A stretch of 64,000 nt of DNA, taken from NCBI RefSeq assembly GCF_016026235.1, contig NZ_CP065613.1; one strand, written 5' to 3'. Position numbers and translations under genes: made by a program. Below, one piece after another: positions 33,865-38,050 of this stretch (the first letter of the stretch is position 1; every line of letters starts with the position of its first letter). A model generated the notes under the pieces. That model searched no databases and had not been told where the DNA came from. It worked only from the letters and a program-made list of their open reading frames with translations. Origin of the DNA: Escherichia coli. Lineage in GTDB: Bacteria > Pseudomonadota > Gammaproteobacteria > Enterobacterales > Enterobacteriaceae.

Positions 33865-35190
33865 TTAACCTCTCAGAATCCCGCGATCAGGACTTACCCA
33901 ACGGGCGCGTTGCTTTTTAGGCATCAACATGACTCGTGTAAATGATACCAATGTCGTTGCCAGGCTCAGCATCCAGAAAATAACCGGGAACCAAATAATC
34001 CAGAAAAGCGATGAAGTCAGATTATGCTCATAGCGATTCTCGATCATCAGGCTGACAATAAATTGCAGTAAACATAACGTACACAATAATATTCCGGCAG
34101 TATGTGTCGCAGCGATATGTGTCAATTCAATATTTAACGGTACACCGGCAAGTTGGACTGCGTAAATAATGAAACCGACCAGGCAGGTGAAGGCCCATAT
34201 TGTCGTCAGGCAGTATTCAAAAAACAGCGGCCACATTCGAAAGTTTTCTTTGCGCCACAACCTTGTCATATTTTTGAGGAATACTTCTGCACCGCCCTGA
34301 GCCCAGCGCAGGCGCTGTTTCCACAGCCCTTTTAACGTTTCAGGCATTAATATCCAGCACAGCGCCCGTGGCTCGTAAAAAATCGTCCACTGATTCAACT
34401 GCAGCTTCCAGCTAATATCAATATCTTCGGTGATCATATCGTCACTCCAGTAACCCACTTCTGCCAGGGCGCTGCGACGAAATGCGGCAATAACACCGGA
34501 AACGGTAAATACGTTTCCATAGATACGCTGGGTTCGCTTGATCAAACCAATAATTGAGGAATACTCGCCAACCTGAATTTTACCCACCAGGGTAGAACGT
34601 GTTCGAATACGAGGATTACCGGTTACGGCACCCACACGCGGGTTGTACAACATCGGTTCCACAATATATGCCGCCGCATCGCGGTCTAATAACGCATCGC
34701 CATCAATGCACACCAGATATTCACTTTTCGCCGCGGCAGCTCCGGTTTTAAGCGCAATGGCTTTCCCCTGGTTTTGCGCCAGATGAATGACCCGCAAATG
34801 GGGAATTTGTGCAGCCATGCGATCCAGGATGGCACGGGTTTTATCTGTTGAACCGTCATTTACGGCAATAACTTCAATGTTCTCATAACGCTGTGCTAAA
34901 GCGGCGTGTATGGTTTCCTCAACGTTTTTCTCCTCATTAAAACAGGGAATGATAATGGAGATAGACGGATTATCTTTCAACTGGGGAGCTGGTGCGTTTT
35001 CTCCCCACGGCCAGTGGCGTTCACGATAGACCCAGAAATAGACGCCGCCAACAATCCACATAATGGACATAAAAAACGGCCAGAAGAAAACGAACCTCAT
35101 CATCAGTTCACCAGAGTGAAAGTACGCTACGCATAGGGGTATGCATAACACCAGACATAATATAAAAAACGATACGATGCGATTAATCAT
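33865..35190 (-). CDS. pgaC: Poly-beta-1,6-N-acetylglucosamine synthase PgaC (GT2)
   Basis: 441-aa ORF, glycosyltransferase family 2 motifs (DGS, QRLRW). Confidence 0.9.
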
Positions 35191-36685
35191 TTTTCGGATA
35201 CCAGGCTGTTGAAAACTCAGGACGAATAACGTCTATTTCAGGTTGGTTATGCAGAAAATTGTCGGGATAATAACCATAGTTTTTCACTCCATTCAGTTGT
35301 AATAGGCTCATCCAGTGAGCGAGTTGTTGCGAAGAAATAGCCTGATGCTGACCATTTTTCTGCCAGTTTTGTGCCTGTAATTCTAAAATAGATTTGTCTT
35401 TAGCCTGAGGGATGCTTTTAATCTGATTGGTCAGTTGTATTAACCATTGATCAGCCGATTTTTCTGCGACACCTTCCATATAAGGCATAGCCATAATAGC
35501 GGTCCAGTCATAGCTTTTTAGGAAATCAGCATAATTCTGTGCAAACCAGGCTTCACTTTCAGGTTGTGTTACCGGAAGTGCAAAAATATTTCGTGCAGTT
35601 TTAACATGTGGACCACGAATGGCTTTTACGCGCGCACTAAGTTCTAAAGTGAAGTCAGTTAACGCACGACTTTTAAAGCGGGTCCACTGTTTAAATTGCT
35701 CCGGGTTTTGTCGAATTTCGCTCAGACTCCCGCTAAAGCCTGCTTGCTGATAAGCCGCGATAGCCGGTGCACTGGCATCTTCATAATCTGAAAGCAAAGC
35801 ATCATCGTGGAACAATAGGCCATCAAAAGCAGCATGTCCGGCAAGATCTTCATATAACATGCCAACTTGTGCTCTGACCCTGTCATCAAAAGGCGAGAGA
35901 CGGCGATATTGTTCAGGATGAATTTGTGCTTTTTTCTCCCCAGTTGGTAAGTATTTTACTCGCGTTAATGTGGGATCTAAATCCCAGCTTAATACCGGCA
36001 TCCACGCATAGATGTTTACACCTGAGCGGGTACGTAATTGCCAGGCAACCCGACTAAAAATATCTGCTTTCATTGGTAGCAAACGATTTGGAAACCAGAC
36101 TTCTTTGACCAGCCCATCACCATCGGGATCAGCAAATGCCTGCAAATACACGGTTGATATTTGCATATCTTTCACCCGCTGAATTAGCACATCAATATTG
36201 CGATCCATTTGCTGGCGGTTTTCGTCATAAACGTAATCAAGATCGATATGCATTATCCGTTGTGGTGATTTTTCCTGTACGGTAATAATTTTCTGGGCAA
36301 ACTCTTTTAATGAGGGATTATTGGCGATTAATACTCGCGGAATGGAATCCAATTGCGACGCATTTGCCAAACCTGATTCAAGGGTGAAGAACATGTCATA
36401 ACCGAGTTTTTTTAATTCCTCTATCGCTATGCCATTCGCTTCGCCATAAGGCCAAACAAAAACGTGTGGATTTACCTTAGCCTTTGTACGCAGGTATTCC
36501 GTCATTTTTACAGCATCCAGACGAATTCTTTCCCGGTATTCTGCTGCGGTTTCATACCGTGCGTGGTCAGTAAAATATGCACGATTTACATATACAGGCA
36601 ATAAGCTGCCGGTGGCATTAGCCTGAATACCGTAGTGAGAATTCCATGTATGAGAAGAGACCTCAACGAGCGGGGAACGCGCAAC
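35183..36685 (-). pseudogene. pgaB: pgaB remnant lacking about 170 N-terminal codons; frame runs into the IS3 end
   Basis: ORF track 35183..36601 (472 aa) matches the C-terminal ~500 aa of PgaB (672 aa in K-12 from memory); upstream sequence is replaced by IS3 at 36686. Confidence 0.8.
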
Positions 36686-36715
36686 TGATCCTACCCACGT
36701 AATATGGACACAGGC

Positions 36716-37582
36716 CTAAGCGAGGTTCTGGTTTTCAAATTGTTCCGGACTGAGGCCGCCACACCAACTGTGCCGCCGCCACCGATTGTAATCACATTCG
36801 ATATAATTAAACACCGTTGCCCGCATTATTTCCCGGCTGATAAAGTGTTCTCCATGGATACATTCCACTTTCAGCGAATGAAAGAAGCTTTCCACGCAGG
36901 CATTATCGTAGCAGCAACCTTTTGCGCTCATACTTCCACGCAGATTATGCCGCTTCAGTTGCGCCTGATAATCTGCTGAACAGTACTGGCCTCCACGGTC
37001 CGTGTGAACGATAACGTTCCGGGGCCTCTTACGCCGCCACAGCGCCATCTGCAGGGCATCGCAGGCCAGTTGCGCCGTCATGCGTGGCGACATTGACCAG
37101 CCAATAACGGCACGTGACCACAGGTCAATGACCACTGCCAGATACAGCCAGCCTTCATCTGTACGTAAGTACGTGATGTCTCCTGCCCACTTCTGGTTCG
37201 GGCCACTGGCGTAAAAATCCTGCTCCAACAGATTTTCTGACACAGGCAGGCCGTGTGCGCGGTAGCTGACCGGGCTGAACTTCCGGGAGGCCTTTGCCCT
37301 CAGTCCCTGACGGCGCAGGCTTGCCGCCACGGTTTTTACGTTAAAGGGGTAACCCTGAGCACGCAGTTCATCCGTCAGGCGTGGGGCACCGTAACGCTGT
37401 TTTGACCGGGTAAAAGCCGCGAGGACAACGCTGTCGCAGTGTTGGCGGAACTGCTGACGCGTGCTTATCCTTGTCCGCCGCTGACACCACGTATACCAGC
37501 CGCTGCGGGCCACCCGGAGCACGCGGCACATTGCTTTGATGCTGAACTCAGCCTGATGTTTTTCAATAAAGACATACTTCAT
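36716..37582 (-). CDS. insF: IS3 transposase OrfB (DDE integrase domain)
   Basis: 288-aa ORF, DDE motif region, overlaps insE in the -1 frame. Confidence 0.85.
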
Positions 37583-37878
37583 TTCAGGCGCTTCGCGAAG
37601 TATGTCGCGGCCTTTTGGAGGATAGCCAGCTCTTCATCCCGTTCTGCCAGCTGGCGTTTGAGACGTGCAATCTCGGTAGACATCTCCAGTTCACGTTCAG
37701 AAGACGTCTGCTGATTTTGCTGTTTACTGCGCCAGTTGTAGAGCTGTGATTCATACAGGCTGAGTTCACGGGCTGCGGCAGTAACACCGATGCGTTCAGC
37801 AAGCTTCAGGGCTTCACTGCGAAATTCAGGCGAATGCTGTTTACGGGGTTTTTTACTGGTTGATACTGTTTTTGTCAT
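37579..37878 (-). CDS. insE: IS3 transposase OrfA (HTH)
   Basis: ORF track 37579..37887; ATG start gives [19 protein letters not shown] (99 aa). Confidence 0.85.
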
Positions 37879-38050
37879 GTGAGTCACCTCTGACTGAGAG
37901 TTTACTCACTTAGCCGCGTGTCCACTATTGCTGGGTAAGATCAATAAGTAATAAGCCCTATTTGGGGAATATGTTAAATGATTTTGCTGGCGTGGATCAG
38001 CAACGAGTTATGCATTGTCGTAAAGCATTTAGTGATGCAAAGGTATTCAA

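Follow-up and report, generated by a model that had tools for sequence, protein, structure and literature searches.

We analyzed a 64-kb stretch of an Escherichia coli genome (contig NZ_CP065613.1; hereafter the window) in which a truncated operon for the polysaccharide poly-β-1,6-N-acetyl-D-glucosamine (PGA) runs directly into a complete copy of the insertion sequence (IS) IS3, using MG1655 (NC_000913; hereafter K-12) as the reference. Gene order in K-12 is pgaB-pgaA-dgcT(ycdT)-IS3D-ymdE'-ycdU, with IS3D and the ymdE pseudogene at 1094245–1095846. The window is collinear with K-12 on both sides of the element (28283–36686 with K-12 1080938–1089342, and 37943–39244 with K-12 1095735–1097036), and the element itself (36686–37943, minus strand) aligns to K-12 IS3D (1094245–1095502) with an identity of 1256/1258. 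On one side of it, all on the minus strand, lie pgaD (33450–33863, 137 aa), pgaC (33865–35190, encoding a 441-aa glycosyltransferase), and a remnant of pgaB, here pgaB' (35183–36685); on the other, on the plus strand, lie a remnant of ymdE (ymdE', 37944–38054) and an intact ycdU (38051–39037, 328 aa). We refer to the side of the right inverted repeat (IRR) as "left" and to that of the left inverted repeat (IRL) as "right." Among complete genomes, that of E. coli FDAARGOS_943 comes closest at this locus: it shows 18 mismatches in 24,387 bp (99.93% identity), and its DNA is 100% identical to window positions 37943–39244.

The IS3 copy is a complete, 1,258-bp orthologue of IS3D and is 1257/1258 identical to the copy at the same locus in FDAARGOS_943. 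Its ends read TGATCC.../...GATCA (in full, TGATCCTACCC... and ...GGGTAAGATCA), in keeping with the imperfect terminal inverted repeats of IS3, which start with TG and finish with CA. Both of its reading frames are open, orfA (insE; 37579–37878, minus strand, 99 aa) and orfB (insF; 36716–37582, minus strand, 288 aa), and they overlap at 37579–37582 in a -1 frameshift arrangement; RefSeq labels a 99.9%-identical copy "IS3 family transposase, programmed frameshift," and Pfam matches to rve_2/rve_3 (DDE transposase) are recorded for an identical orfB end in a related sequence (L004). Transcription of the element runs toward pgaB'CD.

At the left junction (36683–36688), pgaB sequence ending in ...gcgcaac is followed immediately by the IRR end of IS3, TGATCC.... 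Compared with K-12, 4,903 bp are absent here (K-12 1089342–1094244), and compared with FDAARGOS_943, 5,680 bp. Gone with this DNA are pgaB codons 1–172 and the whole of pgaA and dgcT (ycdT), as well as the intergenic region from which pgaA and dgcT diverge, where the pga promoter and leader lie. What remains of pgaB is exactly 500 codons plus the stop (codons 173–672, aligning to K-12 1087839–1089341), meeting the first IS3 base at 36686, and the PgaC and PgaD products are 100% identical to those of K-12, the two nucleotide differences in pgaC both being synonymous. An initial annotation of this locus, made from the sequence alone, had described pgaD and pgaC as intact, the pgaB frame as the C-terminal ~500 codons running into IS3 at 36686, and pgaA as absent, and had placed pgaA and ycdT of K-12 between pgaB and an IS3 upstream of ycdU; all of this held, with the K-12 and FDAARGOS_943 comparisons revealing a deletion that ends exactly at the IS3 terminus.

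The right side carries a deletion of its own, which the initial annotation overlooked. At this junction (37941–37946), the IRL end of IS3 (...GATCA) is followed by ataagtaataag within ymdE', and 233 bp of the ymdE pseudogene that are present in K-12 and FDAARGOS_943 are absent. Only the last ~111 bp of ymdE' remain, annotated in strains Z1323CEC0012 and BA92 as an acyl carrier protein (ACP) S-malonyltransferase pseudogene, and ycdU now lies 107 bp from the IS3 end. In O157:H7 (Z866), ymdE is a full-length, 942-bp ACP S-malonyltransferase gene with no IS3 at that place, indicating that the whole IS3-bearing clade already has an IS3-associated loss on this side. Upstream of it, O157:H7 has an ABC permease gene, a gene for a LolA-like protein, and one for a hypothetical protein (L014 1–4112), a cluster absent from all of the IS3-bearing genomes that we examined.

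FDAARGOS_943 preserves the arrangement from which the window departs: the same IS3 copy (1 mismatch) is flanked on both sides by K-12-type sequence, the deleted DNA is still there, and its resident copy shares the variant 36730G with the window IS3. Breakpoints at both termini of an intact IS, no target duplication, and the ancestral arrangement in a sister genome together form the signature of adjacent deletion. Inside the segment that the window has lost, FDAARGOS_943 carries a pgaA nonsense mutation (Q51*), a 1-nt frameshift at nt 93 of pgaB, and an IS1 in dgcT. Because of these lesions, pga may already have been inactive before the deletion, which would then probably have removed genes that were dead, provided that the sister lesions predate the split. 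We also considered whether the pgaA lesion is shared more widely and rejected this, as CFSAN029787 has a different one (Y413*), making the two independent.

IS3 normally generates 3-bp target duplications. The 3-bp flanks of the window copy are aac (36683–36685) and ata (37944–37946) and thus do not form one, as the initial annotation had correctly read; its further argument, that a missing duplication points to a deletion, fared less evenly. The deletion itself is real, and an absent duplication is expected after adjacent deletion, but the mismatch does not serve as evidence on its own. None of the genomes examined, K-12 included, has a target duplication around this IS3 copy, the flanks being ttt/gtg in K-12 and FDAARGOS_943 (in TUM14664, for the right side) and ttt/ggc in CFSAN029787. 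Because the K-12 and CFSAN029787 copies are mismatched with pgaABCD and dgcT all present, a flank mismatch is not diagnostic.

To place these flanks in the species, we used a survey set of 5,426 complete RefSeq E. coli genomes. In 11 of them, several being O104:H4 or Shiga toxin-producing E. coli (STEC) strains, dgcT is joined straight to ymdE' with no IS3. The three such joints that we examined (L009, L010, and L011, near position 600) differ from one another, reading ggcAggcgg, ggcggtt, and gcggtt, and look like independent, imprecise excisions of IS3. An early proposal that GGC was the original target duplication was dropped in view of these three different footprints and of the much larger ancestral region in O157:H7; with three different footprints, the original duplication cannot be recovered.

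A 44-mer spanning the left junction had no match in the survey set or among GTDB species representatives. This absence, together with the standing of IS copies as classic misassembly sites, would suit an assembly artefact in which reads from two IS3 copies were collapsed and pgaB' was falsely joined to ymdE'/ycdU, a failure that the initial annotation had allowed for. However, the exact 472-aa open reading frame (ORF) of pgaB', counted from its earliest possible start codon (TTG at 36601), is recorded in two NCBI draft assemblies. One contig, LSGM01000121.1 (GCA_001907565.1), agrees with the window at every position of a 2,003-bp stretch spanning the pgaB'|IS3 junction and then enters an IS2 end within pgaC that is absent from the window, so it represents a distinct genome, and one from a different assembly. 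The second draft, GCA_900499115.1, has a contig (98.6% identical) that meets an IS1 end at precisely the position equivalent to window 36601, and we rejected it as the same allele: it is an unrelated IS1 truncation of pgaB that yields the same ORF by chance. The right junction, for its part, occurs in two finished genomes, and a collapse of reads would still need an IS3 inserted in pgaB. That the left junction is common to a distinct genome makes misassembly very unlikely, to the point of being negligible.

The history of this IS3 copy can be followed across the survey set. Of the 5,426 genomes, 2,301 retain an intact dgcT|IS3 junction, and for this reason we read the element as one ancient, vertically inherited copy; an IS3 end lies near ymdE'/ycdU in 2,182 genomes of the set, and the copy is present in ~40% of complete genomes. 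On the IRL side, the DNA between the IS3 end and the window breakpoint forms a nested series of 418 bp in CFSAN029787, 233 bp in K-12 and FDAARGOS_943, and 0 bp in the window; among a spread sample of 23 genomes, 18 are of the K-12 type and 5 of the CFSAN029787 type. An independent deletion anchored by IS3 is seen on the IRR side in TUM14664 and strain 102651, where it ends 468 bp further toward the start of pgaB. The right junction of the window, IS3|ATAAGTAATAAG, recurs identically in the complete genomes of Z1323CEC0012, from a chicken in Korea, and O2:H16 BA92, from a human in Brazil (L012, L013 9020–9025), both of which keep pgaABCD and dgcT beside it, showing that the two sides of the element change independently.

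The IS3 copies and right flanks of Z1323CEC0012 and BA92 carry K-12-like variants, with 12 differences from the window, versus 0 for FDAARGOS_943. The right breakpoint of the window thus sits on two haplotypes, one FDAARGOS_943-like and one K-12-like, and the nearest relatives of both keep a longer flank. Either the same breakpoint arose twice or a patch of <462 bp was transferred; of the two, we tend to favour recurrence. A stronger proposal, that the resident IS3D-type copy acts as a recurrent, site-selective generator of deletions and that the same nucleotide was struck independently, we put forward only tentatively. Lesions of pga itself are varied: besides pgaA Q51* in FDAARGOS_943 and Y413* in CFSAN029787, we found IS1 and IS3 in TUM14664, IS1 in GCA_900499115.1, IS2 in GCA_001907565.1, and a partial pgaD in BA92. 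The decay of pga is convergent in E. coli.

From these observations we propose, with a probability of roughly 0.82, that the resident IS3D orthologue underwent two separate, transposase-dependent deletions, each anchored at an IS3 end, and that pga export was lost at this locus. A long-resident IS3 copy, originally between dgcT and the ymdE pseudogene, would have suffered an event at its IRR end that removed 5.7 kb (pgaB codons 1–172, pgaA, the pga promoter and leader, and dgcT) and a separate event at its IRL end that removed 233 bp of ymdE', each depending on IS3 transposase at or near the resident copy. Two routes are conceivable: the IS end could attack a site close by on its own DNA molecule, or a new copy could insert close by in matching orientation and be resolved at once by homologous recombination between the two IS3 copies. 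Both would leave the same product, one intact IS3 with no target duplication and breakpoints exactly at its termini. We infer two events, since other genomes show either junction without the other. Adjacent deletions by IS3-family elements have been described as lacking target duplications and as often being small at first and extended later (PMC11708052), and adjacent deletions are reported to have been caused experimentally by IS3 transposase (PMC8860574, citing Sekine et al. 1994).

Both new flanks could also be explained by a single deletion, had extra IS3 copies, inserted into pgaB and ymdE' in matching orientation, recombined via RecA and deleted everything between them, including the resident copy; recombination between IS copies is, moreover, a standard cause of missing target duplications, and the initial annotation had named it as an alternative. 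Such a history nevertheless requires two prior insertions within 7 kb plus the recombination, and the intermediate junctions that it predicts were not found in the 5,426 genomes. The right junction also exists elsewhere beside an unchanged left junction, so one-sided events happen, and the window IS3 has the 36730G of the resident copy in the sister genome, though all copies in the lineage could share this variant. We therefore consider the one-step route unlikely.

Some points weigh against the two-deletion reading as well. Its end product fits intramolecular transposition and insertion followed by recombination equally, and is compatible with either order of the IRR and IRL events. Two-copy intermediates are absent from the 5,426 genomes, a weak objection since they would be unstable; a junction-specific search for IS3 in ymdE' at ATA or in pgaB at AAC returned only unrelated IS3 sites with 6–10 shared flank bases. 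Inactivation of pga before the deletion draws on one sister genome, and its lesions could postdate the split. Finally, the DNA inspected is the 64-kb window, so the missing segment may lie elsewhere. Inspecting this 64-kb portion of the genome likewise leaves room for a relocation, in which the pgaB'-pgaA-dgcT segment moved away on an IS3-bearing circle and reintegrated at another IS3. We regard this as highly improbable: no part of the segment is in the window, where a search for pgaA, dgcT, the 5' sequence of pgaB, and other deleted DNA found nothing anywhere; an excised circle without a replication origin is normally lost; and the segment consists of pseudogenes in the sister strain, so there would be no selection to keep it.

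We then considered what the two deletions leave of the operon. In Pfam, K-12 PgaB comprises Polysacc_deac_1 (residues 102–270) and GHL13 (residues 318–645). GHL13 is whole in pgaB', and Polysacc_deac_1 retains only profile positions 58–123 of 124, so that the signal peptide/lipobox is gone and the deacetylase domain is reduced to its second half. PgaA and PgaB are both reported to have roles in PGA export. The initial annotation had concluded that the export machinery was lost, naming the PgaA porin and the N-terminal deacetylase domain of PgaB; PgaA is indeed gone, and the deacetylase domain is broken, halved rather than entirely removed. Judging from the genes that remain, the locus would be unable to make exported, deacetylated PGA; it also lacks the DgcT diguanylate cyclase.

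Compared with K-12, 16 of the 500 residues of pgaB' differ (10 synonymous and 16 non-synonymous changes; ratio of non-synonymous to synonymous substitution rates, dN/dS, 0.43). All 16 amino-acid changes are common to FDAARGOS_943, and PgaC and PgaD have none. Relaxed selection on pgaB' was considered on the strength of this dN/dS of 0.43 versus zero non-synonymous changes in pgaC and pgaD, but the counts are too small to support it. With their own promoter gone, pgaC and pgaD are intact frames whose only possible source of transcription is IS3. The stop codon of insF lies in the same frame as pgaB', and a search for terminator-like sites between IS3 and pgaB'CD found none. At the boundary between IS3 and pgaB', the idea of a hybrid or outward promoter gained no support, with 4 promoter-like sites there versus 4.2 in shuffled sequences; for IS3-family elements in general, outward promoters have been estimated in a quarter or more (PMC12095673).

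Comparison with known systems places this allele among IS-driven gene losses. The K-12 arrangement shares with the window the same IS3 copy, its orientation, and its left neighbour lineage, as well as a target duplication that is already absent (ttt/gtg), but K-12 retains dgcT, pgaA, a full pgaB, and 233 bp more of ymdE'. Adjacent deletions by IS3-family elements in the laboratory resemble the window in that the element stays, DNA at one end is lost, and no target duplication is present; they, too, begin small and are later extended, and independent lineages show recurrent losses. Unlike in those cases, the element here is IS3 itself, the genomes are natural isolates, and both ends are affected. 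The insertion-deletion-excision model (PMC8860574; Sekine et al. 1994) likewise concerns IS3, with deletions that start at the IS end and downstream genes that may come under IS-derived transcription; that system, however, used a plasmid reporter and induced transposase, whereas the downstream genes here are a crippled operon known from sequence alone. IS-mediated loss of csg and flhDC has been described for Shigella (PMC7373316), where, as in the window, IS elements remove or interrupt operons for biofilm and surface structures. Unlike the present case, that paper has 0 occurrences of pga, and the nearest complete relative of the window is filed as E. coli.

The window contains other mobile DNA. 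A variant of IS1 (44645–45416; 90.6% identical to K-12 IS1D and 99.7% identical to the IS1 copies of FDAARGOS_943) replaces K-12 1101346–1103789, that is, the 5' part of csgG, csgF, csgE, csgD, and part of the csgD-csgB intergenic region, with csgBAC remaining. Its flanks are mismatched, indicating a second IS-anchored deletion, in which curli regulator and secretion genes were lost. An ISEc20-family element of the IS110 family (39245–40693), encoding a 398-aa DEDD transposase (39270–40466, minus strand), is absent from FDAARGOS_943; its insertion point (L008 32858/32859) falls within the element that RefSeq labels "RtT sRNA," in the repeat array between ycdU and the tRNA-Ser gene serX. Collinearity with K-12 breaks off inside mdtG, at 56939. 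The DNA beyond it (56940–64000) encodes a serine recombinase (57389–58078; Resolvase and HTH_7 domains), a Dam-like methyltransferase/helix-turn-helix (HTH) protein (58423–59085), and several ORFs without matches, and is probably an integrated mobile element. Between putP and efeU, a GC-rich insertion of ~122 bp relative to K-12 (28162–28282) looks like a repeat of the repetitive extragenic palindrome/bacterial interspersed mosaic element (REP/BIME) type.

The allele described here is unreported, and the kind of event behind it, IS-driven gene loss, is well known and not unexpected to specialists. Together, the losses of pga and of csgG'-csgD point to a lineage shedding biofilm-matrix functions via insertion sequences, and one IS3 copy with lineage-specific deletion endpoints on both sides provides a natural series for the erosion of surrounding DNA by IS3-family elements. 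Should the resident copy indeed act as a recurrent, site-selective deletion generator, there would be a preferred nearby target for intramolecular events directed by IS3 ends, and the locus would document, in natural populations, deletions that "grow" stepwise from both ends of a single fixed IS copy.

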